DNA from: a virus
Length of the DNA: 64,000 bases
Virus record (IMG/VR): IMGVR_UViG_3300045004_000088
Coordinates: 128,001 to 192,000 of that record
Strand: one strand, 5' to 3'
Position numbers and translations under genes: made by a program. Positions 5,008 to 57,855 of the stretch are shown here, piece after piece. The notes below the pieces were generated by a model, which searched no databases, was not told the DNA's origin, and was given only the letters and a program-made list of their open reading frames with translations. Every line of letters starts with the position of its first letter. Position 1 is the stretch's first letter.

Positions 5008-5023
5008 CCAACAAGGACATCGA

Positions 5024-10015: not shown

Positions 10016-10018
10016 ACC

Positions 10019-10258: not shown

Positions 10259-10286
10259 AGTTGGTACAATCGAGTCGGAGGAACAC

Positions 10287-10403
10287 ATGCCGACCCCCCT
10301 CGAAATGATCGACGCGAAAGTCAAGAACTGCAAGCGTTGCGGTCTGTGCGACGGTCGCAAGAACACGGTTTTCGGCGAGGGCAATCCTTCCTTCTCTAAC
10401 TAA
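10287..10403 (+). pseudogene. N-terminal 38-aa fragment of a family-4 uracil-DNA glycosylase, truncated
   Basis: CKRCGLCDGRKNTVFGEGNPSF matches the UDG4 CxRCxLxxxRxxxVxGEGN motif. A stop follows; the rest of the domain is absent and a low-GC insert comes next. Confidence 0.5.
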
Positions 10404-10431
10404 CCATCTGTGCTGGTGATGGGTACAAAAA

Positions 10432-34268: not shown

Positions 34269-35168
34269 ATGGTCTACAGCAATCACTTCGTCATGTGCGT
34301 CATGGTGGACGGCAAGCCACTCAAGGAAAAAGCAGACGGAACCGTTCAGATTCCGATGAATTCCGAGTACGCAATCCGGTTCAAAAACAAGAATAGTCGG
34401 CGGGCGCTCGTCAAGTTCACCCTCGACGGTGAGGACGCGAGCGGCGGCGGCTACGTCATCGACGGACACAAGGACATCGAAATCAGGCGGTTCTCCGACC
34501 GCGATCAGACGTTCAAGTTCGTAGATCTGAACAGCGGAGAAGCACAACTCGAAGGCAAGAACGGCCCCAACACGGACGGCAGCAAGGGCGTCATCGAAGC
34601 GAAGTTCTACCTCGAAAAAGAATACGTCGCGCCGGCACCGCTCCCGGTTCCAGTGCCGATGCCGTATCCATATCCGGTGCCGATGCCGTACCCGGTTCCG
34701 CGTCCGTCTCCGTGGCGTCGTCCATACGAGCCGTACTACCTCAGCGACAACACCAGATCCCGCAAGGGGATGGTGGCAGAGCCGACGTGGTCAACCAACT
34801 CGACTCCGACACGCGAAGCGTGCGGCGGTGGCGGCACGATGTCCTCATGTAGTCTGGGCATGGCAGCATCCAGCCCGGAATGCACGAGCTACAACTGCTC
34901 CGACGCCGCTCCGACACCGACGTACTCGATGTCGCCGCCGGTGATCGAAGGGGTGACGGTCGGTGGTGGTGCTTCGGGTCAAACCTTCGTGTCCGTGTAC
35001 TTCAACGCGGAAACGGATCACGTCACACTGAGACTAATCCTGCGAGGGGTCAAGGAAGGCACGGTGGTGCAAGAGGCAGTCGAGGAATCGGAATACTGCC
35101 GCAACTGCGGAGCGAAGAAGCCCAGAAAGAACGACAAGTTCTGCGGCAAATGCGGAAGCAAGTTCTAA
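34269..35168 (+). CDS. hypothetical protein with PVPMPYPYPVPMPYP repeats and a C-terminal double zinc ribbon
   Basis: 299-aa ORF; C-term YCRNCGAKKPRKNDKFCGKCGSKF. Confidence 0.55.
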   Translation: MVYSNHFVMCVMVDGKPLKEKADGTVQIPMNSEYAIRFKNKNSRRALVKFTLDGEDASGGGYVIDGHKDIEIRRFSDRDQTFKFVDLNSGEAQLEGKNGPNTDGSKGVIEAKFYLEKEYVAPAPLPVPVPMPYPYPVPMPYPVPRPSPWRRPYEPYYLSDNTRSRKGMVAEPTWSTNSTPTREACGGGGTMSSCSLGMAASSPECTSYNCSDAAPTPTYSMSPPVIEGVTVGGGASGQTFVSVYFNAETDHVTLRLILRGVKEGTVVQEAVEESEYCRNCGAKKPRKNDKFCGKCGSKF

Positions 35169-35203: not shown

Positions 35204-35839
35204 TCATCTCGATCCCAAATAAGTGTCGGCATTGAGCATCGAATGGTGCAGAGCATGAGCGTTCCCAAGAACGTCGTGGAACTTGGGCTGCAAGAACTGT
35301 TTGTACGCTTCGAGCATCTGAACCGCGCAAACACGCGGCTCCATCGCTCCAATCGCGGTTCCGAGGCCCGGACACAGCATCGAGTCGATCTTGTGGGCTT
35401 TGGCCGCTCGTAGGGCCGCACGGAACGCCAAGAAAGCGTTAACGGTCTGCCCGACTTTCATCGGCACACGCATGGTCGGGGCCGAGATCAAGTAAGGCGT
35501 GCGGTTCACGCGGGCGTTGTGTTGAGGATGATGCGGCAGCGTCTCCCTCATGTCGATCACAGCCGCCTGTCCGACCAAAAGCTCGCCGTCGAACTCGGTC
35601 CAGATCTTGGCGCGAAGGTTGTCGCCGATGCCCCAACCGAAGTATTCGCTGTAGACGAAGTCGATCCCGCCGTCCATGTAGCCGAACGAGTTCGCGGGAC
35701 TGACGATGCTCATCACATCGAGGTGTTCGCCCTCTTGGAAGATGTCGCCACAAGAGGCTTTGATGTTGTTGTTTCCCGCGAAAACTTGTTGCCAAGCGCG
35801 GACGAGTTCTGGATTGCGGTCGCGAAGGAAGATTTTCAT
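35204..35839 (-). CDS. macro-domain protein (ADP-ribose binding/processing)
   Basis: Met 76 of ORF 35204..36064; VMSIVSPANSFGYMDGGIDF resembles the macro-domain NAAN...GGGV signature; weak RBS. Confidence 0.55.
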   Translation of the reverse strand: MKIFLRDRNPELVRAWQQVFAGNNNIKASCGDIFQEGEHLDVMSIVSPANSFGYMDGGIDFVYSEYFGWGIGDNLRAKIWTEFDGELLVGQAAVIDMRETLPHHPQHNARVNRTPYLISAPTMRVPMKVGQTVNAFLAFRAALRAAKAHKIDSMLCPGLGTAIGAMEPRVCAVQMLEAYKQFLQPKFHDVLGNAHALHHSMLNADTYLGSR

Positions 35840-35893
35840 GCAGTAACCAAATATTCGCGGCGAAAAATTAGCGCAAGTTACTTGTAATATATT

Positions 35894-36139
35894 ATGAGCG
35901 TAATTTACTTCCTGGGTCTTGAAGACCAAGCCGGACTCGACAACCTCCTCGCGATCCGCCAAGAGAACGAACGCAGGCAGGCTCTGACTTTCGATGACTA
36001 CCAACTGCCGGCCTTCTACGAAAACACAATGCCCGACATTCGTCGCGTAGACAAATGCGGGCATATCTTTGAGGCCGTGAAGGTCAACAACGACACGTTC
36101 GTGCTGACCGTTGGTGGCAACGCCTACGGAGCCAAGTGA
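35894..36139 (+). CDS. small hypothetical protein
   Basis: 81-aa ORF; no SD but an AT-rich TAATATATT stretch just upstream (possible leaderless transcript). Confidence 0.45.
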   Translation: MSVIYFLGLEDQAGLDNLLAIRQENERRQALTFDDYQLPAFYENTMPDIRRVDKCGHIFEAVKVNNDTFVLTVGGNAYGAK

Positions 36140-36598
36140 TCACAGGCCGATCTGACGCCGCATCGCGGTGATCTTTTCGAGCGGCATCCAGTCGGCGAAA
36201 TCGCCCGCGTCGTACAGTTCGGCGAGTTGATCGTAGCTGACCCAGTTCCAGCCTTCGCACTTGTGCGGCTCGGCGTTGACCGGCTCGCCCGCGACCCAGT
36301 CGGCCACCATGAAGATCGTGATGTAGTGCTTATCGTAGTTCTTCATCACGTCGTTGGTGACGAACACCGCGTTCTGCACGGGGAAGGTACGCACACGCAC
36401 CTTGAAGTTCGGCCCGCACTCTTCCCGCAGTTCGCGGAACAGGCACTCTTCCCACGTTTCGTTCCAGTCGAGATGCCCGCCCGGAAACGAGAGCAGACCG
36501 GCCGCGTGTGAGCCTTTCCGCCGGCCCACAAGAACCTTCCCGTCCTTGATGACCATCACGCCGATCCCGACACGCGGGTTCTTTTGAGGGGAATCCAT
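36140..36598 (-). CDS. Nudix hydrolase (second copy in the window)
   Basis: Nudix box GGHLDWNETWEECLFRELREECG. Confidence 0.7.
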   Translation of the reverse strand: MDSPQKNPRVGIGVMVIKDGKVLVGRRKGSHAAGLLSFPGGHLDWNETWEECLFRELREECGPNFKVRVRTFPVQNAVFVTNDVMKNYDKHYITIFMVADWVAGEPVNAEPHKCEGWNWVSYDQLAELYDAGDFADWMPLEKITAMRRQIGL

Positions 36599-36641
36599 GT
36601 TTTCCTCGTTTTCTTTGCATGGAAGACGCTTTTGGCGTCCC

Positions 36642-37079
36642 TTATAAGGATAGAGGCTCGTCTTCTTGTCTGGCGTACTCGGCGGCGACCGAATGCTTCT
36701 CTTCCAGTCGCCGCAGTTCGCTCTCGAACTGTTCGAGTCGGCTCGCGTCGGCGTGGTAAATCAGCGTGCCGCCGTCGCCTGAGTGTGAACCGTAGTAGTG
36801 TCCGGGCTGGCCGGGTACAGGAACCCCGTCTTGAATCAAGACGGCCTGTTCGGGGGTCAGCTTGACAATTTTTGGATAACCCTTTTCATCAAGCGGAGCC
36901 ACACCCGGATCGCCGTACTTCGCGATGTAGCCCGCCAGATCGCCGCCGCAACGAGCGATCCATTGTCGTTGTTCTCGCACCTTCTGCCGGGCGGCGAAAA
37001 TCAGCTTCAGCCCTTTCATGGGAGTCCTCAAGAAAACACGGGCGACTCTTGTTGCTTCGAGCCGTTCAGCTTCCGTCAT
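36642..37079 (-). CDS. hypothetical protein
   Basis: 145-aa ORF in a tightly overlapping minus operon. Confidence 0.5.
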   Translation of the reverse strand: MTEAERLEATRVARVFLRTPMKGLKLIFAARQKVREQRQWIARCGGDLAGYIAKYGDPGVAPLDEKGYPKIVKLTPEQAVLIQDGVPVPGQPGHYYGSHSGDGGTLIYHADASRLEQFESELRRLEEKHSVAAEYARQEDEPLSL

Positions 37080-37893
37080 CGGACACCATCGGGAGTGAAA
37101 TCCGGGTGCCTTCTTTCTTGGCCTTCGGCTTCTTGGGCTTCACCTTGACGGGAACGAAAACGTGTCCGTTGGGGAATGCCCTGTATTCCTTGCCGTCGAG
37201 GGTCGGGTCAGCACCCGACTTGAACGCCGACCCTTGTTTGTAGAAGAACACCACGCCGGCCTTGTCGCAACGGTCCTTGATGTCCCGCGCCCACTGGGGA
37301 TCGTGCTGGCGATAATCGGTTCCGCTTTCGCCGCCGAAGATGAGCCAGTGTAACCCGGACAGATCGAGCTTGTCCAGAGGGCCACAGGCGGGTTCGTAAG
37401 AAACGAACCGCACCACGGCCGGAACCGACCGCAGGTGATCGGCACGCGAGACGTAGTCGTTGTTCTCGATTGTCGATCCGATCCAGACGTTCGGGTAGCC
37501 CGCACCCCAGTCCGAAGGCAAGCTCTGGAGGATGCGTTCCGGCCGCTTGGTGAGCAACTGCCATGTCAGTTGCGGGGTGGCGCGGATCAACGGCCACAGT
37601 TTCTTGAGTTCCTCGATGACGGTCGGGTGATCCTCGAACACGTCACACATGCTGGAACAGAAGACGAGGTGACGGACGCCGTCTTTGGTCGCGACGTTGT
37701 TCCACTTCAGGGGTTCGCCCCAGTGGAGATCGCCGAAGACGCGGCGCGGTTTGGTCTTGCCCCAAACGTCAAACTTGTACCGCAACGCCCAAGTTTCGGC
37801 GTAGCAGTTTTTGCACGCGGGGCTGACCTTCTCGCACCCCCAGACGATGTTGAAGGTGCGGTTGGTCCAAGAAATGGTTGTGACTTCAGCCAT
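37066..37893 (-). CDS. phage Gp37/Gp68 family (DUF5131-like) protein
   Basis: N-term ISWTNRTFNIVWGCEKVSPACKNCYAE is characteristic of the family. Confidence 0.6.
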   Translation of the reverse strand: MAEVTTISWTNRTFNIVWGCEKVSPACKNCYAETWALRYKFDVWGKTKPRRVFGDLHWGEPLKWNNVATKDGVRHLVFCSSMCDVFEDHPTVIEELKKLWPLIRATPQLTWQLLTKRPERILQSLPSDWGAGYPNVWIGSTIENNDYVSRADHLRSVPAVVRFVSYEPACGPLDKLDLSGLHWLIFGGESGTDYRQHDPQWARDIKDRCDKAGVVFFYKQGSAFKSGADPTLDGKEYRAFPNGHVFVPVKVKPKKPKAKKEGTRISLPMVSDDGS

Positions 37894-38152
37894 TGACGGG
37901 TTCCTCCGTAATCTTGAAGACGCCGATCAGGTAGTCCACGAAACCGTCGTGGACGTAGTCGCGGGCGAACTCGTTCGAGCCTTCGGGAACGGTTCCCATC
38001 CGGTTGCTCAGTTTCTTGACTTGGGCTGCGAACGCTCGCGCGTCTTCGATCTTATCGAAATTCTTCTTGAAATCATAGCGACCGTTTTGCAAGCTGCCAC
38101 CGCCACAGTTGTACTGGTAGCAGACGAAACGGACCTGATAGAACGTTTTCAC
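37886..38152 (-). CDS. small hypothetical protein
   Basis: 88-aa ORF, 8-nt overlap with the downstream gene. Confidence 0.45.
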   Translation of the reverse strand: MKTFYQVRFVCYQYNCGGGSLQNGRYDFKKNFDKIEDARAFAAQVKKLSNRMGTVPEGSNEFARDYVHDGFVDYLIGVFKITEEPVNG

Positions 38153-38529
38153 TTCAGTTCTCCGTCAACTTTGAAGACTTCGCCTTTGACGACCACGGTG
38201 ACGGGCCACAACACCACCGTGTACGGGCCGCGTTCCTTGTCGTTCTTGCTGCGTGCCAATTCGGAGGCAATGTCCTTTTCAGCCTCTTCGCGAGTCTTGT
38301 AGCTCCGCGAGTAAACGACAACGTGGCCGTACTTGTCGTAGGCGGTGTACTCGTATCCGCCGAACCGCCCCACGTTCACAGTCTGGGTGTCGCGGATAGC
38401 CAACTGCTCCGGTTCGCGAGGTTCACCGCGCCAGCCACAGTTGTTGCAGCGTTGTTGCAGCGATGCCCACACCCAACAGTCTCTGAGGGGTTGGTCGCCG
38501 TTGCAGTTCGGGCAGTTGGAGTATTTCAT
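38149..38529 (-). CDS. zinc-ribbon hypothetical protein
   Basis: 126-aa ORF; CPNCNG...CNNCGW. Confidence 0.5.
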   Translation of the reverse strand: MKYSNCPNCNGDQPLRDCWVWASLQQRCNNCGWRGEPREPEQLAIRDTQTVNVGRFGGYEYTAYDKYGHVVVYSRSYKTREEAEKDIASELARSKNDKERGPYTVVLWPVTVVVKGEVFKVDGELK

Positions 38530-38667
38530 GGCACCACTATAGACCGGGGACGAGCGTTCGGTTCCGAAAACAGGGAAGCATTGTAAAGGATTTCGGGTTT
38601 ACAAACAACCCGATTCGTCTATAGTGGCAGTGCGACCAATTCCACATCCTACCGGGAGACACTTCCT

Positions 38668-39780
38668 ATGGCCGAGAAGAACAACACTCGTGACGGTGGT
38701 TTGAACCGGGGCGGCATGGTCGGCCGCGTCAGCATCGGTGAACTCTATCACCGCATGAGGGACGTTCACACGGATCGTGAGGGCCAGAAGGAAGAAACCG
38801 CTTCGCCGGCAGCAATCACAGTCATCCCAAGCGCGGCGGTGACAACCGAGGACGCGGCGGCGCGGTCCAAACAGCGGCGTCAAGAGATTTGGGAAGACGC
38901 AAAGGCGAACGCCGCCTACTACATCGACCAAGCCAAGAAGGACGGCAACAAGAAACCGTGGTTCCAGTACGTCAAGAAGACCTTCCAGTACGGCGAATTC
39001 GTCCTCCTTACCCCGGACATGGCCGAAGAACTCTTGCGGTTCAACCCCGACAACCGGCACATGAAGCCGTGGTTGACGGCCGCGTACCGTCGCGACATGG
39101 AGAACGACAACTGGATTCCCGGTCACGAGGGGTTGGGCATCAACCTGTCGGGTAACATGTTCGACGGTCAGCACCGGGCCGAGGGCGTGGTCGAAGCGGA
39201 CAAGGCAGTGCCGGTGTGGATCGTATTCAACGTACTGGACGAAGCCAAGTTCGTCACCGACAGCGGCGCGAAGCGGAACGTCAACGAGAAGTTGGCGATG
39301 GTGTGCAAAGTCACGTTGCACAACCGCACCGCCGGCATGCTCAAGGCGATGATGCGGGGCATCACCCCACGGAACAAGTTCTCCGAGGCGGAAATCGCCA
39401 CGTTCGCGGTGTCGTACCAGAACGTCATCGAGTGGATCAGCCAATACCTGCCGGTGGCACGCGCCGACGTTCAGGCGGCTCTCGGCAAGGCGTTCCTCTG
39501 GTACGGGCCGGACAAGCTCGCGCCGTTCTGCGACCGACTGCGGGAGCTACAGTTCATTGACGACGAAGACCCCGCCAAGACGCTCTACAAGTACACTCAG
39601 CAACTGCGGACGGGGCGGGTGAACAACCCGATCTCGACCTACAAGAAAACGCTGGCGGCGATTGACGCCGTGATCAACGGCAAGCCGTGCAGTCGCCTCT
39701 ACGAGAAGGCCGACGACCTGTTCGAGTGGGTCGTGGACGAGAGCGGTTCCTACAAGGTGCCGCCCAAGACGGTTTCGTGA
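38668..39780 (+). CDS. ParB/Srx-fold DGQHR-motif protein (DndB/DpdB-like nuclease or NTPase domain)
   Basis: GINLSGNMFDGQHRAEGV contains the DGQHR signature; GGGAGA RBS. Confidence 0.55.
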   Translation: MAEKNNTRDGGLNRGGMVGRVSIGELYHRMRDVHTDREGQKEETASPAAITVIPSAAVTTEDAAARSKQRRQEIWEDAKANAAYYIDQAKKDGNKKPWFQYVKKTFQYGEFVLLTPDMAEELLRFNPDNRHMKPWLTAAYRRDMENDNWIPGHEGLGINLSGNMFDGQHRAEGVVEADKAVPVWIVFNVLDEAKFVTDSGAKRNVNEKLAMVCKVTLHNRTAGMLKAMMRGITPRNKFSEAEIATFAVSYQNVIEWISQYLPVARADVQAALGKAFLWYGPDKLAPFCDRLRELQFIDDEDPAKTLYKYTQQLRTGRVNNPISTYKKTLAAIDAVINGKPCSRLYEKADDLFEWVVDESGSYKVPPKTVS

Positions 39781-39796
39781 AACAAGAACCCTCACA

Positions 39797-39826
39797 CAGC
39801 GGGCAAAACGGCCCGCTGTGTGGTTG
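39797..39826 (+). terminator. strong hairpin after the DGQHR gene (no U-tract)
   Basis: CACACAGCGGGC-caaaac-GCCCGCTGTGTG perfect 12-bp stem. Confidence 0.4.
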
Positions 39827-39912
39827 AATCGGAGAAATTCGGCGCAAAACCGGAGAGTCCGATTCGGGGTGCTTTTGGATAGTGAGACGACATCCTCAAC
39901 CCGGTGACGCAA

Positions 39913-41526
39913 ATGCGCGACGAAAAATTCGACTTTTGGTTGGCGAACGGTTTCAACCTCTGTCTGGTCGGACACCACGGCGTCGGCAAAACGGCGTTGG
40001 TGAAGTCCTGCTTCGAGCGGGCCGGTCTGGTCAAAGACAAAACCTACATGTACTTTTCGGCGTCCACACTCGATCCGTGGGTGGACTTCGTGGGCGTTCC
40101 GCGTGAACGGACCATCGACAAGATGCCGCCGGAATTCGGCATCATCCGCGAACTCGCGGTCGTGAACGAAGACCTCGCAGTCGAGTGGGTCATGTCCAAC
40201 TGGAAGCTCAAGGAAGCTTCCGCCAAGAAGACCGTGTCGCACGCGCTCGGTCGCAAAGAGGGCAAGACGTTCCTCGAACTCGTTCGCCCGGAAGCGTTCG
40301 CGAACGACGACCTCGAAGCGATCTTCATTGACGAGTTCAACCGCGCACCGAAGAAGGTGCGGAACGCCGTCATGGAACTGCTCCAATTCAAGAGCATCAA
40401 CGGCAAGCGGTTCCCGAAGCTCCGCGCGGTCTGGACGGCGATCAACCCCAACGACGACGAGCAGCAGAAGTACGACGTGGAAGAGATCGATCCGGCACAG
40501 ATGGACCGCTTCGTCGTGTCCATCAAGGTCAGCTACAAGCCGAGTCTCGACTGGTTCGTCAAGGAATTCGGCACGCAGGCCGGCAAAGCGGCGGTCCAAT
40601 GGTGGACCGACCTCCCGCCCGACGAACAGAAGAACGTCAGCCCGCGTCGGCTGGAGTACGCTCTGCGGATGTGGGAGGCTCGCGGCGACGTGCGGGACGT
40701 GCTTCCGGGTTCGTCGGGCGTCAAGAAGCTGCTCAGTGCGTTGGACACCGGCCCGATCTCCGAGCGGATCGAGGCGTTGTTCAACAGCGGCGACAAGACG
40801 GCCGCGAAGTTGTTCCTCACCAACGAGAACAACTACGATTCGGGCGTCAAGGTGATTGTCGAGAGCGAAGCGATGATGGAGTTCTTCCTCCCGCTCTTGA
40901 ACAAAGAGAAGATCGCGGTTCTGCTCTCGGACAACCAGCGGGCGCGGACGATGATCTGCTCGTCGTTCAAGGCCCACGACGTGTTCCAGCACGCGATGCG
41001 GGAGATCTTGGAAGCGAAGCAGAACAAGCCGCTCATGGCACAGATCCGCAAAGCTCTGAGCGAGAGTGTCGTCCAGAAGGCGGGGTTCGGTCCCGACTCG
41101 AAGGCGGGTGAGAAACCCGAACCGCCGCACTTCGTTCGCGGGGCCGACAAGATCGCGGCGTGGGGTGCCAAGATCGCGGAACTGAAGCAGTTGCCGGTGG
41201 ACGCCGCGCAACAGCGGACGGCGATCTACAACCAGATGGTCGCCCACATTCCCGAAAAGATGACGGGGGACGAAGCCCTCGGCACACTCGAACTGCTCAA
41301 CGGGCTGATGCAGCGGGCGTGGCAGACCGCCCTAACGTCCGACACCGCGACGGGCATGAAGCTGGTGGTCAACATGGCGAACCACGCCATCGCGCAACTG
41401 GCAATCAACAAATCGATGTCGTGGAGTGACATCCTCGACAACTACATGAAGAAGATGAACTACCTGTTGGACAAGGTCCGCACCGCCGGCCTCGCCAACA
41501 AGATCTTCACACCGGCGAAGGGCTGA
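39913..41526 (+). CDS. MoxR-like AAA+ ATPase
   Basis: Walker A LVGHHGVGKT; Walker B/sensor IFIDEFNRAPKKVRNAVMELL; ATG at 39913 with GGTGA RBS (a GTG at 39904 is also possible). Confidence 0.7.
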   Translation: MRDEKFDFWLANGFNLCLVGHHGVGKTALVKSCFERAGLVKDKTYMYFSASTLDPWVDFVGVPRERTIDKMPPEFGIIRELAVVNEDLAVEWVMSNWKLKEASAKKTVSHALGRKEGKTFLELVRPEAFANDDLEAIFIDEFNRAPKKVRNAVMELLQFKSINGKRFPKLRAVWTAINPNDDEQQKYDVEEIDPAQMDRFVVSIKVSYKPSLDWFVKEFGTQAGKAAVQWWTDLPPDEQKNVSPRRLEYALRMWEARGDVRDVLPGSSGVKKLLSALDTGPISERIEALFNSGDKTAAKLFLTNENNYDSGVKVIVESEAMMEFFLPLLNKEKIAVLLSDNQRARTMICSSFKAHDVFQHAMREILEAKQNKPLMAQIRKALSESVVQKAGFGPDSKAGEKPEPPHFVRGADKIAAWGAKIAELKQLPVDAAQQRTAIYNQMVAHIPEKMTGDEALGTLELLNGLMQRAWQTALTSDTATGMKLVVNMANHAIAQLAINKSMSWSDILDNYMKKMNYLLDKVRTAGLANKIFTPAKG

Positions 41527-41596
41527 AAACTTCGACGCAAAACCGGAGGGTACACGCAACCTGCGTGTACCCCTCGTAGCCAATACGGAGACTCAC

Positions 41597-43072
41597 ATGT
41601 CCGACGAAATCGCTCCCGAAGTTGAACCCGAAGTCGAAGTCGCACCGCAACCGGCCGAGCCGAAGCCCTTCAAGTTGACGGGCGACGAGTGGCGCGAAAT
41701 GCTGCTCTCCCTCGAAGAACACCACGGCGTGTTTTACAAGTTGTGGTCGATGGGCATGCCCATCTTCACCACCCAGATCGACACCGCCGCAGTCTCGTTC
41801 AGCAAGGGCGGCGACTTGGTGGCGTTCCTGTTCAACCCGCACTACTGGCAGAAGTGTACCCCCTACGAACGCAAATTCGTGATCTGTCACGAGGCGTTGC
41901 ACGTCATCCTGAATCACGGCGTCCGCATCAAGGACTCCGAAGATCGGGAGATGAGCAACATCGCGCTCGACGTGGTCGTCAACCACATGCTCACCCGGTG
42001 CTTCGCGTTCGACCGCGACCAGATCAGCAACTGGGAAAAGCTGTGTTGGGTGGACACCGTGTTCAAGCGGCCGGACGGCAAGATCCGCCACGACCCGCGT
42101 ACCTCGCGACCCATCGCGGAAGACGAGTCGTTCGAGTATTACCTGAACATGCTCGCCAAGCACGGCATGCCGAAGTGCGGCAAGGGCAAGCAGGGGCAGG
42201 GCAACCCGTGTCAGGGTCAACAGGGGCAGGGCGGCGGTCAGGGGAACCAGCAAGGTGACGGTCAGGGTCAGCAACCCGGCGACGGGCTGCAAACACTGGA
42301 CGATCACGAAGTGATGAGCGATCCCGACAACGATTGGGGCGCGGTCATCGACCGACTGGACGAGGAACTGTCGGACGACGAGAAAGAGACGATCAAGTCT
42401 CAAATCGAGAAGCACTTTCAGCCGTCGCCGTCGCAACGTGCTGGTACGCATCCGGGCGGGCAGTGGCACATCGCGAACGTGAAGAAGGTGCCGAAGAAGA
42501 AGAAGTGGGAATCGGTCATCAAGAAGTGGGTCCAGACCAAGATTCAGGAAAAGGACAGCGACGAAGAACAGTGGTCGCGGCTGAACCGCCGGATGGTGAT
42601 GCTCCCGCGCGACATGTTCCTGCCGTCGCAGATGGAAATCGAGGACCGCGTCAAGGACAAGAACCGCATCAAGGTGTTGTTCTTCCTCGACACGTCCGGC
42701 TCGTGCTGGCACCTGAAGGACCGCTTCTTCACGGCCGCGACGAGCATTCCCGAAGACCGATTCGACGTTCGCCTCTTCTGCTTCGACACGTCGGTCTACC
42801 CGACCGATCTGAAGGACAAGAAGATGCACGGCGGTGGGGGGACGTACTTCCACATCCTCGAACAGTACATCCAGAGGATGATGCAACAGGACGGCGACGG
42901 GCGGTATCCCGATGCCGTCTGGGTTCTCACTGACGGGTACGGCGACCGCGTCACACCGGCGATGCCCGACCGCTGGTACTGGTTCCTCGAAGGCAGTATG
43001 ACCGCGAAGTCACTGACTTCCAGCTACTGTCCCGAAGAATGTGCGGTTTTCAAGCTCACCGATTTCGAGTAA
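41597..43072 (+). CDS. VWA-domain protein with N-terminal HExxH putative metallopeptidase domain (DUF2201-like partner of MoxR ATPases)
   Basis: CHEALHVILNHG HExxH; LFFLDTSGSC MIDAS-like; GGAGAC RBS; directly downstream of the AAA+ gene. Confidence 0.65.
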   Translation: MSDEIAPEVEPEVEVAPQPAEPKPFKLTGDEWREMLLSLEEHHGVFYKLWSMGMPIFTTQIDTAAVSFSKGGDLVAFLFNPHYWQKCTPYERKFVICHEALHVILNHGVRIKDSEDREMSNIALDVVVNHMLTRCFAFDRDQISNWEKLCWVDTVFKRPDGKIRHDPRTSRPIAEDESFEYYLNMLAKHGMPKCGKGKQGQGNPCQGQQGQGGGQGNQQGDGQGQQPGDGLQTLDDHEVMSDPDNDWGAVIDRLDEELSDDEKETIKSQIEKHFQPSPSQRAGTHPGGQWHIANVKKVPKKKKWESVIKKWVQTKIQEKDSDEEQWSRLNRRMVMLPRDMFLPSQMEIEDRVKDKNRIKVLFFLDTSGSCWHLKDRFFTAATSIPEDRFDVRLFCFDTSVYPTDLKDKKMHGGGGTYFHILEQYIQRMMQQDGDGRYPDAVWVLTDGYGDRVTPAMPDRWYWFLEGSMTAKSLTSSYCPEECAVFKLTDFE

Positions 43073-43126: not shown

Positions 43127-43624
43127 ATGAATCAGCAGAACGAAGAAACCCCCGCACAGAAAGCGGCCGAAGCGGTCGGGTGTGGCATGATCGCGGCGGC
43201 GGTCGTAGCCCTCATCATCGTCATGTTCATGGCGCAAATCGATTCGGCCAAGAAAACGGCTACGGACTGGCTGGAACGGTCGAAAACGCCGGCCGGGTAC
43301 ATCACGGGCAAAGTTACCAACGTCAAAACGTGGCAAGAAGAAGACTTCAAACACAAAGAAGGCAACCTGACCCTGACGCTCCCCATCAGGGATCGTTGCG
43401 AGGTCACGTTCAGCGACGGCCGGACACGCAAGTTCGTCGGCATGCCGAAAGATACGGTTCCGACCGACAAGGAAATGACGTTCATCTGGGGCGGGTTTGA
43501 CATCCTGCTCGAAGTGGTGGACGCCGAGGAGTTCAAGAAGCGACCCCACAAACCCGGCGACCCGCCGCCACCTCCGAACAACATCGGCGCGGTAGTGGCA
43601 CCGCCACCGGAGAAAAAGACATGA
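43127..43624 (+). CDS. membrane-anchored protein with Pro-rich C-terminus
   Basis: 165 aa; one TM helix (GCGMIAAAVVALIIVMFMA); GGAGACGG RBS. Confidence 0.5.
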   Translation: MNQQNEETPAQKAAEAVGCGMIAAAVVALIIVMFMAQIDSAKKTATDWLERSKTPAGYITGKVTNVKTWQEEDFKHKEGNLTLTLPIRDRCEVTFSDGRTRKFVGMPKDTVPTDKEMTFIWGGFDILLEVVDAEEFKKRPHKPGDPPPPPNNIGAVVAPPPEKKT

Positions 43625-46164: not shown

Positions 46165-46800
46165 TCAATGATGCGGGAGAGGCCAGTTTGACTGATCTGG
46201 AATCGGCGGCTCGTCAATCTTGCCGGCATTCACTGCAACTTCACCGATGGCTTCCTCGGTGAAGAAGAAACCGTCTTCGAGTTCTAGCAAGTGTTCGAGA
46301 GCTACGGCGGTCCACTTGCCGTAGATGAACTTGAACTTGAAGTGACGCCCTTCGAGTTCATCGCTGTGGACGAAGGCCAGCCACGGGCGGCGGGTCTTCT
46401 TCCACAAGAGCATCGGTTTGCGTTCGGCGCGGGCAACGTCGTCGGTTACTTGTTTCAAGAAGGCGTTGAGCGTACCACTCTCTTTTAGCAGCACCAAATT
46501 CAAGTCGATGTCGTCGTAGCCATTCTTGGACTCCAACACCCACTTGAAACCTTTGGGGCAACACAGATCTCCCGTCAGCGTGTCCTTCGCGTGCTTGGGG
46601 AGGTTCTTGACCTGTCCCCAACGGTTGCCTGAACCGACAGAGCGACTGAAGCCGTCGCCGAATCTGGTGGTGAACAGTTTGACGAGATCGCGTTCGGCAC
46701 GTTTGCCCTTTTTGCCGCCATCGACCTTCTTCTTTTTCTTGCTCTTGAGTTCCAGAACGTCATCGACGCTCAGGCCGCTCAGGTCCAGTTTGGGTTTCAT
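46165..46800 (-). CDS. putative Holliday-junction resolvase / PD-(D/E)xK nuclease (Hjc-like)
   Basis: ERDLVKLF...GDL...VLESK resembles the Hjc E..D..ExK pattern; basic N-term. Confidence 0.45.
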   Translation of the reverse strand: MKPKLDLSGLSVDDVLELKSKKKKKVDGGKKGKRAERDLVKLFTTRFGDGFSRSVGSGNRWGQVKNLPKHAKDTLTGDLCCPKGFKWVLESKNGYDDIDLNLVLLKESGTLNAFLKQVTDDVARAERKPMLLWKKTRRPWLAFVHSDELEGRHFKFKFIYGKWTAVALEHLLELEDGFFFTEEAIGEVAVNAGKIDEPPIPDQSNWPLPHH

Positions 46801-47813
46801 ACGCTCTCCAGTTCGAGCCGCAGCCCGTCTATTTCTTCCGCCACGTTATGCACGAGGGTTGTCACCCCGGTGTGAACCGCCGGACTCAATGAGTTCTCAC
46901 GTTCGGTTCGCGCGTATGCCGTTTCCAACTCCGCGATCCTCTGTTTGAGGAGAGCGACCGACTGCAAGAATTCCGGGTTGTTAGGCCCGGTATTCTTCAT
47001 TTTAGTGTTGTAGCCAACCTCGAACTTTCTGAACTCTATGCCATCGATTTGTAGAGCGAACATCCACACTTCAGACGGAGACAGCGAATACAGTTTGTGC
47101 TTGGAGAAATTCGGCACCTGCCTCAGTTGCGGCATCGAGGCCACGACAGCACTCCAGATCTCTGCCGTAGAGCAGAACCAGATTTGTCCCAAGCTGTCTC
47201 TGGTGTCTGCGATCCACAAGGGACGGTGCTTGTTGCGAAACAGCCAGAGCCGCTTCTGCTTGTCGTTCTCGGCCACGGCCGTAGCCATGTGTCCCTGATT
47301 GATTAGCGAGAACACCTCTTTGATCCCGAACAGACGTTCGGCGATGGTCGGTTCTTCGTGCGGGAATCGCTTGACGGCGTCGTCGCGGTTGATGCCGAGG
47401 ATGATCCGCAGAATGATCTCGGAGTCGCAACCGGATTCAAGACGGTAGTTCTGTGCCAACATCCCGTACTCGTTTTCGGGAATGCGGCCGTTGTGGATCA
47501 ACGCCACCGTGCGATCTTGATTCAAGAACGGGTGGTTGTTGCGGTTGTCTTCTGGTCTGCCCTGGCTCGCGCCGCGAGCGTGCGCAACCAAAATCTGGCA
47601 GTTCTTCTCACGAAGCGACTGCCAGTTGTCGGTCTTGATGTATTGCGAAGACCGCAGCGGCTGCTTGTGGAAGTAAACGGCGTCACCTTCGACGCCGTAG
47701 TGTCCGGCCGCGTCGGTCCCGCGACTTTCGAGCTTGCGAAACAGGTTGGTCGCCAGTTTGAAGCTCAGGTCGGGGTACTGGGACTGGCCGATGTACCCTG
47801 ATATGCCACACAT
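46797..47813 (-). CDS. class II (Ntn) glutamine amidotransferase domain protein
   Basis: N-term MCGISGYIG with nucleophile Cys2; GATase-II fold motifs; no obvious synthetase partner domain. Confidence 0.65.
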   Translation of the reverse strand: MCGISGYIGQSQYPDLSFKLATNLFRKLESRGTDAAGHYGVEGDAVYFHKQPLRSSQYIKTDNWQSLREKNCQILVAHARGASQGRPEDNRNNHPFLNQDRTVALIHNGRIPENEYGMLAQNYRLESGCDSEIILRIILGINRDDAVKRFPHEEPTIAERLFGIKEVFSLINQGHMATAVAENDKQKRLWLFRNKHRPLWIADTRDSLGQIWFCSTAEIWSAVVASMPQLRQVPNFSKHKLYSLSPSEVWMFALQIDGIEFRKFEVGYNTKMKNTGPNNPEFLQSVALLKQRIAELETAYARTERENSLSPAVHTGVTTLVHNVAEEIDGLRLELESV

Positions 47814-47821
47814 TCAATACC

Positions 47822-48421
47822 TCACATTCCTACCGGCGCAGGCGGCGGGGATTGACCCATAGCCGCTCCGGGTGTCGCGCCGGCGTTGGGATCTAGCGGA
47901 TTGTCTTCCTGCGGTTGTTCCGCAGGCGGTTGCTGTTGTTGCTGATCGTCGGCGGGCGGTTGCTCTTGTTTCTTGTTGCCGCCGGTCGGAGAGTTTTGTT
48001 CTTTAGGACTGGTCGATTTGTCTTCGTCCGGGTCCGGGTCTTCCGAGGTGTTCGCGCCGATCTTGTTGATCGGAACGCCCATCTTGCCGATCACCTTTTC
48101 AAGCTCGTCCGCACTGCCGGCAACGATCTCTTCGAGTCCCTCTCGTTCCTCAATGGCCTTCATCATCGCCACCCCGATTTTCTGGAGCGGTCTGAGGAAC
48201 TTCATGTCGTCCTTCGGCCAGTGCGTGTGCAGCACCCGCCGAATCTGATTGACGATCTTCTCCGAGTACCTGACGAGGCTGCGGGTTCCCATGCTCTTGG
48301 CATCGTCCCGAAGCTCCTGAAGGGCGGTGAGAATGTCACCCATCTTGCCGCCGAGGTAGACACGGCTTTCGAGCAAGATGTAGTCCTTGAATCCGAATTC
48401 GTCCCAATTTGGTATTGCCAC
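47822..48421 (-). CDS. hypothetical protein with Gln/Pro-rich disordered C-terminus
   Basis: 199-aa ORF. Confidence 0.5.
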   Translation of the reverse strand: MAIPNWDEFGFKDYILLESRVYLGGKMGDILTALQELRDDAKSMGTRSLVRYSEKIVNQIRRVLHTHWPKDDMKFLRPLQKIGVAMMKAIEEREGLEEIVAGSADELEKVIGKMGVPINKIGANTSEDPDPDEDKSTSPKEQNSPTGGNKKQEQPPADDQQQQQPPAEQPQEDNPLDPNAGATPGAAMGQSPPPAPVGM

Positions 48422-48431
48422 TTTCCTCCGT

Positions 48432-50087
48432 TCACTCTTCCGAGTCTTTCTGTTCCACGCCCCGGTGGTTGAGATGGTTCAGTGCCGCTTCCACCAACCC
48501 GGCGAACAGCGGAGCAGGACTCATCAGTCGGCTTTTGAACTCAGGGTGAGCTTGTGTGCCGATGTAGAACGGGTGGATCGCACGATCCAACTCCATTACC
48601 TCCACCAGACCCGATTGTGGGTTTCTGCCGGTGACTTTGAAGCCTTTTGCCGACATCGCCTCTATGTACGCGGGATTCACCTCATATCGGTGTCGGTGCC
48701 TCTCACTCACCAACTTTTTTCTGTACAACGTGTACGCCAGAGAATCCTTCACCAACTCGCAGTCGTATGCACCGAGCCTCATGTTCGCCGACTTGCCGGT
48801 CAACTCCGCTTGCCCCGCGACAAAGTGTACGACCGGGTTGGGAGTATTAGAGTCGAACTCAATTGAGTTCGACTCTAAACCGAGAGCGTGGCGAGTGAAT
48901 TCGATCACCGCACACTGAAGTCCCAGACAGATGCCGAGGAACGGCAGCTTGTGTTCCCTCGCCCATCTCGCGCCGCGAATCTTGCCCTCGACGCCGCGAC
49001 AGTCGAAGCCACCGGGGACGATAAGACCCTGTAAACCCTCGAAAAACCTGCCGTGGTTTCGCTTCGAGTTCTCCACGTCCTCTGCCGAGATCCACCTGAT
49101 CTTGACCTTCGCGTTGACGGCCGCAGCCGAATGAACCAACGCCTCCTTCAAAGACAAATAAGCCTCGTCCGCGTTCTCGATGTACTTGGCGAGAACGCCG
49201 ATCTCCACGGTCGGCAGATCGGGGGAAACCATCTTCTCGACCAATTCTTTGTGCTTCTTGATTCCGATACCGTTGCGGCCGAAACGGAACCGATCAACGA
49301 TCAGGTCGTCCACGTCACGGTTGTAGAACTCCAACGGAACGTGATAAACGGTCTGAACGTCGGGGGCAGTGAAAACGGCCTTCCGGCGAACGCCGGTCAA
49401 GCTCGCGATCTTGTCGAGAAGTTTAGTCGGAAGCTCGCGGTCGCTCGGCGTGCGACACAGGAGAATGTCGGGAGTGATGCCGAACGATTGAAGGGTCTTG
49501 ATGGACTGTTGAAGGGGCTTGGTCTTAAACTCTTTGATCGTCGGAATCCAAAGAATCGGCGCGACGTGGACGATGATCACGTCCTCGAAGTTGTCCTGCT
49601 TGAATTGACGAACGGCTTCGAGGAACGGCCCGCTCTCGATGTCGCCGACCGTTCCTCCGATCTCAACGATCACACAGTCGTTGTTTTCGCCGAGTGCCTT
49701 GAGTCTAGATTGGATTTTGTCGGTGACGTGGGGAATGCACTGAACGGTCTGGCCGAGGTACTTGCCCCCTTTTTGTTCGGCGAGAAGTTCGTCGTAGACC
49801 TGACCGCTGGTGAGGATGTTCTTGCTAGAAACCTCGACACCCATGATGCGTTCGTAGGTGCCGAGATCGAGGTCTGTTTCGGAGCCGTCATCACACAAGA
49901 AAACCTCGCCGTGTTCTCGCGGCGATAGGATTCCGGCGTTGACGTTCAGATAAGGGTCGAATTTGACTGGCGTGACTTTCAAATCACGCATCTTCAGTAG
50001 TAATCCCAAGCTCGCGGTACTGACGCCTTTGCCCGACCCCGAATAAACGCCGCCCACCACGATGATGTATTTGCTTTGCATGCTCAC
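48432..50087 (-). CDS. pyrG: CTP synthase
   Basis: N-term KYIIVVGGVYSGSGKGVSTASLG; C-term class-I GATase domain (GICLGLQ); 551 aa. Confidence 0.8.
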   Translation of the reverse strand: MSMQSKYIIVVGGVYSGSGKGVSTASLGLLLKMRDLKVTPVKFDPYLNVNAGILSPREHGEVFLCDDGSETDLDLGTYERIMGVEVSSKNILTSGQVYDELLAEQKGGKYLGQTVQCIPHVTDKIQSRLKALGENNDCVIVEIGGTVGDIESGPFLEAVRQFKQDNFEDVIIVHVAPILWIPTIKEFKTKPLQQSIKTLQSFGITPDILLCRTPSDRELPTKLLDKIASLTGVRRKAVFTAPDVQTVYHVPLEFYNRDVDDLIVDRFRFGRNGIGIKKHKELVEKMVSPDLPTVEIGVLAKYIENADEAYLSLKEALVHSAAAVNAKVKIRWISAEDVENSKRNHGRFFEGLQGLIVPGGFDCRGVEGKIRGARWAREHKLPFLGICLGLQCAVIEFTRHALGLESNSIEFDSNTPNPVVHFVAGQAELTGKSANMRLGAYDCELVKDSLAYTLYRKKLVSERHRHRYEVNPAYIEAMSAKGFKVTGRNPQSGLVEVMELDRAIHPFYIGTQAHPEFKSRLMSPAPLFAGLVEAALNHLNHRGVEQKDSEE

Positions 50088-50100
50088 ATTGTATGTAAGC

Positions 50101-50307
50101 TCAATCTAGCGGAACCCCGGCGACATTTTCGGTCGTCGGGAGTTCCTTTTCGTAGCTCGGTTTGCCGAACATGAAACCTAAACAGTTGACGTGGCAGTCG
50201 CACAGAAAAGATTCGCTGCCGTCAGAAAAAACGGTCCTGTAACCGAGTCGAGCGTTGCACTCGGTACAGTGATACACTTCGTAAACTTTGACGATAGTTT
50301 TCGCCAC
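50101..50307 (-). CDS. small Cys4 zinc-ribbon protein (GTG start)
   Basis: CTECN...CDCHVNC; GAGGTGGA upstream; sits between nrdB and pyrG. Confidence 0.3.
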   Translation of the reverse strand: MAKTIVKVYEVYHCTECNARLGYRTVFSDGSESFLCDCHVNCLGFMFGKPSYEKELPTTENVAGVPLD

Positions 50308-50315
50308 GTTCCACC

Positions 50316-51386
50316 TCAAAGGGTGATGTTGTCGAGATCCGAATCGTTGAGCGCGGTGTTGGCGGAACCAACCAAGTACGACTCCAGTTCGCTCTCTTGC
50401 GGGGCCACCTGCACCGAAGTGCTGTCGAAGTACCGGGTTGACCAGCCGGAAACCGGGTTGGTCTTCTGGTTGAAGATCCGCTTGTAGCCCATAGCTTGGA
50501 GCCGGGTGTTGGCGAGCCACTCGACGTAGCCGTGGAGGACTTCCGTGTTCAGGCCCAACAGCGAGCCGCGTGAGAACAGGTAGTCGGCCCACGCCTTCTC
50601 GTTCTTGACGGCCAGCCGATACAGTTCGTACACCTTCTCTTCATTGTCGGCCAGAACCTTCTGGAACCCTTCCTCTTCGTGGTTCTTCCAGTTCTTGATG
50701 ATATTCTGGGTGATCGCGACGTGCAAGTTCTCGTCGCGGGCGATCTCGCCGATGATCTTGGCACTGCCTTCCATCAGCCCCTTATAGCCGAAAAAGAACG
50801 AGCAGACGAACGAAGTGTAGAAGGCCACACCTTCGGTGATGTTGGTGCAGATCACCGAGTTGAAGATGCGTTGCTTCAGGTCCGTCTCGTCGTTCAGCAA
50901 CTCGTCGTATGCCTTCGAGATCGCGTTGGCGCGGCCGACGATCTCCTTGTCGTCCAAGATGCTGTCGAAGAACGCGGTGGCGTTCTTGGTCACGTTCTTG
51001 AAGATGTGGGTGTAGCTGAACGAGTGCATCTGCTCCATCGACGCCCACGTCCCCATGCACAGTTCCAACTCCGGGTTGGTCACATACTCACTCATCTTGT
51101 GGATGCTGCGACTCAACATGGAGTCGGTCATCGTCTGCCAGCGGATGTTGCTCTCGAAAACGAACCGCTCGGACTCCGAGAGCTTCTCGAAGTCAACGCG
51201 GTCTTTCGACAGGTCGATCCGCTGCGGACGCCAGCGGTAGTTCTCCTGCTGCTCCCAGAGGCTGAAAAACTTCGGGTACTTGAACTGGTCGTACCGTTGC
51301 AGGCTCAGGTCTTCGCCGAGGAACATGATGCGGTCGTTGACCGGGACGTTCTTCTTGTTCAAAACGGTCTTCATATTGGTTCTCAC
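50316..51386 (-). CDS. nrdB: ribonucleotide reductase class Ia small subunit
   Basis: Ferritin-like motifs EGVAFYTSF and ARDENLH; E. coli NrdB-like throughout; alt start Met 5 (51374). Confidence 0.8.
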   Translation of the reverse strand: MRTNMKTVLNKKNVPVNDRIMFLGEDLSLQRYDQFKYPKFFSLWEQQENYRWRPQRIDLSKDRVDFEKLSESERFVFESNIRWQTMTDSMLSRSIHKMSEYVTNPELELCMGTWASMEQMHSFSYTHIFKNVTKNATAFFDSILDDKEIVGRANAISKAYDELLNDETDLKQRIFNSVICTNITEGVAFYTSFVCSFFFGYKGLMEGSAKIIGEIARDENLHVAITQNIIKNWKNHEEEGFQKVLADNEEKVYELYRLAVKNEKAWADYLFSRGSLLGLNTEVLHGYVEWLANTRLQAMGYKRIFNQKTNPVSGWSTRYFDSTSVQVAPQESELESYLVGSANTALNDSDLDNITL

Positions 51387-51395
51387 TTTTGGCTG

Positions 51396-53648: not shown

Positions 53649-53755
53649 GTCATTCTCCTGATCTCAAATACCCAAAGGGAGGGTATCTAAGACACCCGTC
53701 GTTTTTTCTAGTTGGTATTAGTTCGTGAAGCCGGTCGCCTTGCGCGAACGCGGCG

Positions 53756-55777: not shown

Positions 55778-55844
55778 CAGGAGTCCTTTGGCAAGTCGGC
55801 TGACATCTTCCACGGTCGGGCCGAAGATGTCAATCCGACTTTGT

Positions 55845-56423
55845 TCAATTTGAAGTAGCGAGCGCCACGGCGATCAGGGGGTCGCCGCCCGGTGATGAAT
55901 AGTAGTCGTCAACAAGGTCCGCATCGTACTGGTGGGCGAACCCCGCCGGCAATACGCTGGCGAACCAGGGGAAGAACTCCACGAAGTAGCCGACGTAGTT
56001 CGCGTCGAAGTGCGGCGGGGACGAACCTGTGCCGAACGACATCTCGATCACGCGGGCCAGCATGTCCAAAAGGTCGGACGGAGCGGCCCAGAAGTCCTCG
56101 TGAACGAGACGACTGCCGTGGAACGGGCGTCGGACACATGAAGACTCGCGGCCGAAGGCGACGACCTTGTCTGCGGCGAGTTCAAAAATCTCCTCCACGG
56201 ATTTTTGAACTCGGACGTTCGGCCCGGCGAACAAGAAGACGCCGTCCCTTTTGGCGAGGGCCGCGATCAATCCCGCCTGTGTGCCGTCGTACAACTCGAA
56301 GCCGTCGCCGGCCGTGTTGAAAACAAGAACGGCCGTGCCGAGCTTTTTGACCGCCGCGAGCCAATCCTTCCCGTGTGTGTCCCAAGATTCGGGGGTGAAA
56401 GCCCCCACGATGTACTTCTTCAA
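55845..56423 (-). CDS. hypothetical protein between the SbcC- and Mre11-like genes
   Basis: 192-aa ORF; 4-nt overlap with the upstream gene. Confidence 0.5.
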   Translation of the reverse strand: MKKYIVGAFTPESWDTHGKDWLAAVKKLGTAVLVFNTAGDGFELYDGTQAGLIAALAKRDGVFLFAGPNVRVQKSVEEIFELAADKVVAFGRESSCVRRPFHGSRLVHEDFWAAPSDLLDMLARVIEMSFGTGSSPPHFDANYVGYFVEFFPWFASVLPAGFAHQYDADLVDDYYSSPGGDPLIAVALATSN

Positions 56424-57487: not shown

Positions 57488-57561
57488 CACCACTCCTGAA
57501 ATGAAAGAAGACGCACAGTCAACCCGTGCGCCTTCTAGTCTTAATGAAAAAACCCCTTCAG

Positions 57562-57855
57562 TCAAGACGAGGTTTTATTTTGTTGTTGTTGGCCGTGGCT
57601 CAGGTACTTCTCCAAAACGTCCCAGACGTTCGTGGACTTCAGCTTGGTCGGTGCTTGGTTGCCAGCACCCGGTGCGCCACCGCCCGGCCCGCCCATAGGA
57701 GGAGGTCCACCCGGAGGCAAACCGCCGCCACCCATAGGTGGAGGACCGCCCATCGGAGGACCACCCGGCGGTGCGCCACCGCCCGGAGGACCGCCCGCCG
57801 GTGGTGGCGGTGCCGCGTCTTCGATAAGATTCAAGAACTGGGTGAATGTCTTCAT
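57562..57855 (-). CDS. Gly/Pro-rich low-complexity small protein (uncertain; the opposite strand also carries an ORF)
   Basis: Met 66 of ORF 57562..58050. GTATATAC lies 6 nt upstream. A hairpin plus U-tract terminator overlaps the stop. Confidence 0.3.
   Translation of the reverse strand: MKTFTQFLNLIEDAAPPPPAGGPPGGGAPPGGPPMGGPPPMGGGGLPPGGPPPMGGPGGGAPGAGNQAPTKLKSTNVWDVLEKYLSHGQQQQNKTSS

Follow-up and report, generated by a model that had tools for sequence, protein, structure and literature searches.

Linkage and predicted roles of a ParB/Srx-fold gene and a MoxR-VWA/zincin gene pair in the genome backbone of a huge phage

Do three neighbouring genes of a huge phage make up one DNA-modification or anti-defence system, or do they belong to separate units? 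The genes in question lie on a stretch of 64,000 nucleotides of viral DNA (positions 128,001 to 192,000 of IMG/VR record IMGVR_UViG_3300045004_000088; hereafter the window) and encode a protein with a DGQHR pentapeptide (gene A), a MoxR-like AAA+ ATPase (gene B) and a protein that joins a zincin-like to a VWA-like domain (gene C). A first-pass annotation, made from the sequence alone, had read them as a trio in which a DndB/DpdB-type protein precedes a chaperone-like pair of cellular type. Our survey of related loci showed that B and C are an obligate pair, and that A and B-C are each optional occupants of one slot. The best explanation is that they are two independent functional units sharing one slot in the conserved backbone of a huge-myovirus clade. 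With moderate confidence, we take B-C to be a MoxR-type chaperone and a VWA/zincin cochaperone that would mature or process a protein complex, and A to be an independent ParB/Srx-type protein, probably binding nucleotides and DNA.

All three genes are open reading frames (ORFs) in the same direction, lying where the first-pass annotation had placed them (Table 1) and carrying the motifs it had named. Public gene calls start B at an ATG at 39913, which gives 537 amino acids (aa). All three have a codon bias of the coding type, and the GC content at third codon positions was 0.83-0.84 for A and C, as is typical of genes in this window. The gaps between the genes are 123 nucleotides (nt) for A-B and 70 nt for B-C, a scan found no convincing terminator between them, and in this window the three are probably co-transcribed. 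The source is a huge myovirus, as indicated by the tail-sheath, gp15-like and baseplate-hub genes that the window also contains, by the contigs that carry the A protein and by a match to LR756511.1: an identical A protein is encoded on six public contigs, four of them of 0.2-1 Mb, and a nucleotide search of 50,697 deposited phage genomes returned a sole match, of 89 bp, to the 595-kb uncultured phage LR756511.1.

Linkage was surveyed in two sets of 80 viral loci each, one with A and the other with C as the anchor. Genes were called and clustered in all of them, and the anchors were collapsed at 90% identity into 32 A lineages and 53 C lineages. B adjoined C in 79 of the 80 C-anchored loci and in every one of the 53 C lineages, including divergent arrangements (<B >C) and contexts that share no other gene with the window. 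A stood beside the pair in only 13 of these 53 lineages. Among the A lineages, 19 had B(-C) adjacent and 13 had no B-C beside A, although a few loci of the latter group end just after A. Because A and B-C each occur at the same slot without the other, the trio is a clade-specific synteny and not an obligate three-gene system. The proposal that the three are conserved neighbours therefore holds in part: they are syntenic in relatives, with order and strand kept at 34-70% amino-acid identity, but they do not form a unit.

The surrounding genes belong to a conserved backbone. The backbone of the huge-phage clade runs in the order baseplate hub, gene 2, (gene 19), (A), (B, C), (F, others, A'), where F is an accessory gene and A' a partial paralogue of A, both described below, and it continues on the opposite strand with PDDEXK_15, GATase_6, an unknown gene, CTP synthase, the small and large subunits of ribonucleotide reductase (RNR), an SbcC-like gene and an Mre11-like gene. 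Upstream of the slot, the window has the tail sheath, the gp15-like gene and the baseplate hub. Relatives without A have the baseplate hub, one unannotated gene and then B-C in the same orientation. Where A and B-C are both present, their order is what the shared ancestry of the backbone predicts.

Turning to the proteins themselves, C matched DUF2201_N in Pfam (E=3.7e-10; score 40.3 bits, cutoff 23.2). Its HEALH motif (H98-E99-x-x-H102) and H107 were invariant among 39 homologues, as were the residues of the metal ion-dependent adhesion site (MIDAS), namely D365-x-S367-x-S369 (DTSGS), T416 and D446. A low-complexity G/Q linker joins the N-terminal zincin-like domain to the C-terminal VWA-like domain; the VWA assignment draws on the MIDAS motif and on homology to N4 gp25-like proteins, which are annotated as vWFA. 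The DUF2201_N match and the HExxH motif bear out the first-pass reading of C as a DUF2201-type metallopeptidase, and the MIDAS residues agree with a putative VWA domain. C also matched phrog_1314 (E=8.5e-41), the same PHROG as the N4 gp25-like proteins. With hhalign, the C profile aligned to the N4-gp25-like vWFA protein (gp20) of roseophage EE36phi1 with a probability of 98.4% and E=4e-15 over 334 columns, the HExxH and MIDAS motifs included, and the gene for this protein adjoins one for a gp24-like ATPase. Searches with tblastn gave matches to C in N4-like phages, phiRSL1 and BCSR5, and identity to gp25-like proteins was found in short segments, at ~35-50% over 50-100 residues. Neither the sequence nor the profile of C gave anything meaningful against PDB sequences. 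On these alignments, C is homologous over its full length to N4 gp25-like proteins, and the link to gp24 is one of analogy only.

Two annotations touch on C. N4 gp25-like vWFA proteins of phrog_1314 carry the PHROG/RefSeq label 'HNH endonuclease' (e.g. 4974-6143 in locus L006); no HNH model matched C, Pfam gives DUF2201_N, and the label looks like a propagated misannotation. In the 586-kb relative L002, an extra stand-alone VWA (DUF2201-like) gene at 9935-10417 follows C; it is a duplicate of the C-terminal domain of C, with 40% identity to C 344-464 and a weak DUF2201 match. At the equivalent position, the window has an ORF for a membrane-anchored, Pro-rich protein of 165 aa.

The motifs of B are those of a divergent MoxR-like AAA+ ATPase. 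Both Walker motifs are intact (A, GHHGVGKT; B, IDEF), and G23/G26/G28/K29, D143/E144, N181 and D201/R202 were invariant among 18 orthologues; N181 can be read as sensor 1 and R202, in the DRF motif, as the arginine finger. The AAA+ core comprises residues 1-215 and is followed by a conserved helical extension. In Pfam, B scored 22.4 bits for AAA_5 (cutoff 22), 21.5 for AAA (21.2) and 18.7 for AAA_3 (27), the last being below its cutoff, and it matched phrog_1297 'ATPase' with E=1.8e-14. The best PDB match, obtained with the 18-sequence profile, was the MoxR structure 2r44 (E=6e-6), over 74 residues only, from Walker B to DRF. These motifs uphold the MoxR-like assignment of the first-pass annotation. 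B is not claimed here as an orthologue of gp24, to which hhalign related it at the generic AAA+ level only.

The same annotation had regarded a MoxR ATPase with a VWA/HExxH partner as unusual in a phage, and here the opposite was found. More than 1000 homologues of C were present in the protein collection, mostly metagenomic and many on contigs of 0.2-0.67 Mb, but only 7 in 185,579 reference species genomes, all on short contigs of metagenome-assembled genomes. The clade of the B-C pair is essentially viral. In N4-like phages the set of 14 core genes includes N4 gp24 and gp25, both without an assigned function (PMC4193335; PMC2784036); in N4 they are middle genes (PMC4193335). Iyer et al. (2021) described a MoxR ATPase and a vWA protein with an N-terminal metallopeptidase in jumbo phages, and a virion-assembly role was proposed for this pair by analogy with Acidianus two-tailed virus (ATV) (PMC7824862). 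Judged from that description, the pair found in jumbo phages of group 2.2 (ASV44729/ASV44728) is identical in architecture to B-C. N4 and its relatives in the Schitoviridae likewise have an ATPase gene followed by a VWA gene, but they are 70-kb podoviruses, whereas the phages of this locus are huge myoviruses, and B (540 aa) differs from gp24 (398 aa) by a long C-terminal extension. As for ATV p618/p892, the assembly role has been demonstrated for that archaeal virus only, and p892 is without a peptidase domain. Cellular MoxR-VWA systems (RavA-ViaA, CbbQO, NorQD, CoxDE; COG0714 with DUF2201_N/DUF2201) have MoxR-type AAA+ motifs in common with B and, in the partner protein, a DUF2201_N domain and MIDAS as in C; unlike them, this B-C clade is essentially viral.

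In A, the DGQHR pentapeptide comprises residues 166-170; G167, H169 and R170 were invariant in alignments of 75 and 46 homologues, and D166 and Q168 were conserved in at least 90%. R130 is likewise invariant and lies within an NPDNR motif that resembles ParB box I, and a further conserved motif, D198-x-G200-x-x-R203, follows downstream of DGQHR. In the AlphaFold2 (AF2) model built from the 75 homologues (pLDDT 87), the N-terminus is disordered and a long helix leads into an α/β Srx/ParB core at ~100-200, which carries both NPDNR and DGQHR; a helical C-terminal domain follows at ~205-336. Foldseek against PDB ranked ParB-CDP and Noc first, with weak E-values; against BFVD, the model matched phage proteins labelled 'ParB-like nuclease domain' or helix-turn-helix (HTH) 'HTH DNA-binding' (E=1e-13 to 1e-8, TM up to 0.8). 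The predicted fold is thus common to the ParB/Srx superfamily (ParB, PadC, KorB, Noc, sulfiredoxin, Osa, SbnI, SerK), in agreement with the fold and pentapeptide named in the first-pass annotation. The NPxxR motif is box-I-like, DGQHR is equivalent to the GxxR phosphate loop, and a helical domain follows the core as in ParB and KorB. Unlike ParB, A matches no ParB_N/ParBc hidden Markov model (HMM), and parS and a ParA partner are not present. A is probably a DNA-binding protein that binds nucleoside triphosphates (NTPs).

The sole library match of A was to phrog_5931 (function unknown; E=8e-25). No match was obtained in Pfam (E<=10), NCBIfam (E<=1) or PADLOC, the ParB_N/ParBc models included; the sequence and the family profile found nothing among PDB sequences, hhalign of the family profile against a single bona fide ParB_N protein was not significant, and a GTDB genome scan found no A-type genes. 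A profile search with the A alignment collected 30,769 clusters at 50% identity with E<=1e-3, of which 12,825 had E<=1e-30. Members are mostly 270-330 aa long, tandem-duplicated forms of 560-620 aa occur, and 46 sampled members had essentially no Pfam or NCBIfam match. A is a member of a very large phage ParB/Srx-like family for which neither Pfam nor NCBIfam has a model; at more than 30,000 such clusters, the family represents a clear annotation gap for phage early regions. Its distant relatives lie in early or replication regions of small phages, near repressors, DNA methyltransferases, ParB_N, DnaB, VapE and ThyX; no MoxR or VWA genes adjoined them in the neighbourhoods examined. Many relatives of the locus additionally carry A', a stand-alone paralogue of the C-terminal helical half of A (residues ~220-367), at 9998-10429 in L001, 11941-12345 in L002, 15812-16246 in L003 and at many further loci. 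A and A' bracket the variable B-C-F cassette, with A' on the far side; this window is without A'.

The DGQHR pentapeptide had also been taken to mark A as a protein of the DndB/DpdB type. A failure to pass the DGQHR/DndB HMM thresholds had been named beforehand as evidence against that assignment, and this is what was found: A matched neither TIGR03187 nor PF14072 at NCBIfam E<=1 and Pfam E<=10, and among 46 members of the wider A family one reached TIGR03187, at E=0.0076, and none PF14072. The DGQHR domain is defined by the pentapeptide together with a QR pair and FxxxN motifs (PMC4619093). In the sequence and conservation lists of A, the QR pair and FxxxN were not evident; A has N129-R130 and no conserved FxxxN after DGQHR. 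DGQxR-type loops are generic to ParB/Srx NTP-binding domains, as in the DGQQR of GmrS/DUF262. No dnd or dpd genes were found among the Pfam-labelled called genes of four related contigs or among the subset of window ORFs that was scanned. A regulator of the DndB/DpdB type, tied to phosphorothioate or 7-deazaguanine DNA modification, would share with A the conserved pentapeptide, the protein length and the superfamily, and Foldseek gave a weak likeness to a Marseillevirus 'DNA-sulfur modification-associated protein' (E=4e-3, TM ~0.2). The HMMs, the QR and FxxxN motifs and the neighbours all differ, however, and the nearest structural relatives are phage ParB-like/HTH proteins. DndB/DpdB was consequently rejected as an identity for A; this reading is largely refuted, and we give it almost no credence.

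Downstream of C, beyond two small ORFs, lies gene F. Its orthologues with a PF26125 AcrVA2-like match share 72% (L002) and 39% (L004/L005) identity with it, and a PF26125 gene in L003 matches F at 27% identity only. Among 14 orthologues H340 was invariant and R342 and H345 were present in at least 90%, which gives a motif H340-x-R342-x-x-H345 with the same spacing as H286/R288/H291 of AcrVA2, residues that are functionally important (bioRxiv 10.1101/2022.11.29.518452). AcrVA2 homologues on megaphages have been reported previously (bioRxiv 10.1101/2022.11.29.518452). A search of PDB chains with the F profile found none. F, as compared with AcrVA2/FinQ (PF26125), occurs in a minority of related loci, and nothing points to Cas12a as its target. 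It was present in 8 of the 53 C lineages (about 15%) and stood beside A without B-C in L018, L029 and L043; F thus accompanies the cluster facultatively. Immediately after C comes a variable stretch that holds AcrVA2-like, DUF5131 and other genes, and the slot is rich in accessory genes, possibly for counter-defence. A further block on the opposite strand, with Macro, NUDIX and DUF5131 genes and an unknown 145-aa gene between the latter two, sits between a zinc-ribbon gene of the backbone and A; it was seen only in the closest relatives (L002, L008 and partly L009) and may counter ADP-ribose signalling. F and the Macro/NUDIX block are the only real hint at the anti-defence idea.

How, then, would the two units work? 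Built on the motifs, homologies, predicted fold and linkage statistics, the reading that we prefer proposes an oligomeric state and an ATPase activity for B, a peptidase activity for C, a client, and DNA or NTP binding by A. B would form a ring that remodels a client protein complex by an ATP-driven mechanism, C would dock to B and/or to the client through its MIDAS site, and the metallopeptidase domain of C may cleave the client, so that B-C would be a chaperone-cochaperone and processing device for the maturation of a phage complex. The leading guess for the client is a tail or baseplate/virion assembly component, because B-C follows the baseplate-hub gene in relatives without A and because ATV p618/p892 offers a precedent. 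A would be expressed from its own sigma-70-like promoter. Several observations weigh against this picture. N4 gp24/gp25 are middle genes amid nucleotide-metabolism and replication genes, a poor fit to virion assembly, and no functional study of gp24/gp25 was found in the literature. B clears the Pfam AAA_5 cutoff by just 0.4 bit, hhalign of the B profile with an N4 gp24-like protein was not significant (E=0.0066, probability 6%), and C had no direct Pfam match to VWA or DUF2201. The order and strand of A-B-C are moreover kept across the 34-70% identity range in many genomes, along with their probable co-transcription here, and some functional interplay of A with B-C is possible.

Were A, B, C and perhaps F one cooperating anti-defence or DNA-modification operon, A would target or mark DNA and the MoxR/VWA proteins would act with it. 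The genes do lie on one strand, with short gaps between them and a single conserved promoter upstream, 18-19 of the 32 A lineages keep the order A-B-C(-F) at identities as low as 34%, F is AcrVA2/FinQ-like and the Macro/NUDIX block lies immediately upstream. We nevertheless consider such an operon quite unlikely: A is absent from 40 of the 53 B-C lineages, B-C is not beside A in 13 of the 32 A lineages, and F, found in only 8 of 53 C lineages, accompanies A without B-C in the three loci named above. In the loci examined the wider A family never neighbours MoxR/VWA, the DndB/DpdB models and partner genes are missing as described, and PADLOC gave no meaningful match, only a P-loop hit. B-C on its own might, by analogy with the logic of bacterial MoxR-vWA conflict systems, be a counter-defence or host-takeover device in which an ATP-driven unfoldase, a VWA adaptor and a zincin protease would remove a host protein. 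The variable accessory slot after C, the invariant HExxH, the position of the N4-like pair upstream of nucleotide-metabolism genes and the middle transcripts of N4 gp24/gp25 would suit such a role, and MoxR-vWA modules are reported to serve prokaryotic conflict systems (PMC7159879). This, too, is unlikely: the pair belongs to the core of N4-like phages whose hosts differ widely, as anti-defence genes directed at a particular host typically do not, it matches no PADLOC or anti-defence family, and it follows baseplate genes in the huge-phage backbone.

MoxR/VWA pairs typically mature metalloenzymes, and B-C could on that analogy be a chaperone for metal-cofactor insertion, or an activase, acting on an adjacent metabolic enzyme such as RNR (compare CbbQO, NorQD, CoxDE and the chelatases CobST and BchID). 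The pair does lie beside a conserved nucleotide-metabolism block with RNR, and the N4-like pair of roseophages lies beside dCMP deaminase, thymidylate synthase and related genes. A zincin domain is foreign to known activases, however; several B-C contexts share no backbone gene with the window, and no RNR or nucleotide-metabolism homologue was seen beside the pair there. That the pair adjoins the metabolic block follows from the synteny of the backbone, with the neighbours kept in the inverted loci L140 and L141, and an activase role seems very improbable. A wider proposal, which we regard as speculative and improbable, would turn the slot as a whole, with A, B-C and the AcrVA2/FinQ-like gene, into an island of huge phages that is modular and serves counter-defence. 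A would then bind incoming or replicating phage DNA under NTP gating, and the client that the MoxR-VWA-zincin pair unfolds and cleaves would be a host protein of immunity or surveillance; where both are present, the pair would cooperate with the AcrVA2-like silencer of nascent chains or mRNA; if true, this would be the first function for the long-orphan N4 gp24/gp25 core pair. As it stands, the elements are of kinds already known, namely a jumbo-phage MoxR-vWA pair of the N4 gp24/gp25 type, a phage ParB/Srx-like protein and an AcrVA2/FinQ-like neighbour, and the locus holds no new kind of system. MoxR with VWA/zincin is among the most widely conserved phage gene pairs without known function, and its invariant catalytic-type motifs open it to direct tests; what interest remains concerns the function of this widespread pair and the size of the unannotated A family.

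Table 1. Positions of genes and sequence elements in the window.
Feature	Positions	Strand	Evidence
Gene A, ParB/Srx-fold protein (predicted), 370 aa	38668-39780	+	ORF list
Gene B, divergent MoxR-like AAA+ ATPase, 540 aa from GTG start	39904-41526	+	
Gene C, DUF2201_N zincin-like and VWA-like protein, 491 aa	41597-43072	+	
Gene F, AcrVA2/FinQ-like protein, 388 aa	43952-45118	+	PF26125 matches of orthologues, HxRxxH motif
Inverted repeat, left arm	38534-38544	-	minus strand reads GTCTATAGTGG, -10-like TATAGT
Inverted repeat, right arm	38617-38627		
Putative promoter of A, sigma-70-like TTTACA-N16-TATAGT	38598-38627	+	scan, 10/12 matches
Zinc-ribbon gene next to the left arm	38149-38529	-	
Zinc-ribbon gene of the backbone	34269-35168		
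Opposite-strand accessory block	35204-37893	-	
Macro gene	35204-36064	-	
NUDIX gene	36140-36598	-	
DUF5131 gene	37066-37893	-	
Membrane-anchored, Pro-rich 165-aa ORF	43127-43624		
Nucleotide-metabolism/recombination module	46165-57565	-	
RNA ligase	6894-8108	+	
TPR-repeat protein	2248-3744	+	

The divergent region upstream of A is flanked by a palindrome pair, as the first-pass annotation had pointed out, and the 11-bp inverted repeat is exact, with CCACTATAGAC as the left arm, GTCTATAGTGG as the right arm and 72 nt between them. Chance would give about 0.2 such matches per window, and a count of 2 was reached in 2 of 100 shuffles. The right arm encloses the -10 of the promoter of A, which is 41 nt upstream of that gene. 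The left arm is 5 nt upstream of the ATG of a minus-strand zinc-ribbon gene, and inspection of the window sequence found no good -35 at 16-18 nt from it. In L002 (about 5430-5530) and L008 (about 8795-8950), the same intergenic region has a divergent pair of TTTACA-N17-TATACT promoters; the inverted repeat there consists of their -10 regions, the equivalent of the left arm being the -10 of the leftward one. Because both relatives have full promoters in both directions, the palindrome is more readily read as a single -10-like promoter element in two copies that face outward, of which only the rightward has a proper -35 here; an operator or recombination site was considered and is disfavoured on the same grounds. 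In this window the left arm is at most a possible promoter of the zinc-ribbon gene.

The promoter pattern occurs twice on the plus strand of the 64-kb window (6536-6564 and 38598-38625), against 0 expected, and both copies share the spacer element CCCGATTC. They represent a sigma-70-like promoter class, TTTACAA..CCCGATTC..CTATAGTGG, with an N16-17 spacer and divergent pairs in relatives. The adjoining zinc-ribbon gene (CPNC...CNNC) has an alternative start at 38472 in a public gene call and holds an exact 11-nt tandem duplication, GTTGTTGCAGC x2, at 38440-38461; with its ATG so close to the left arm, the gene may have a leaderless mRNA.

On the far side of the slot, the module on the opposite strand comprises a PDDEXK_15 endonuclease, a stand-alone class-II GATase, an unknown 199-aa gene, CTP synthase, RNR small and large (ATP-cone) subunits, and SbcC/Rad50-like and Mre11-like proteins. 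Belonging to the shared backbone, PDDEXK_15 was found in 38 of the 53 C lineages and was usually adjoined by GATase_6. A functional tie of B-C to these two downstream genes was considered and rejected: their adjacency follows the backbone, and in L140 and L141 the B-C pair is simply inverted in place with the same neighbours kept. Elsewhere in the window, the RNA ligase has a PHA02142 OB domain, and the TPR-repeat protein has a family-9 glycosyltransferase C-terminus.

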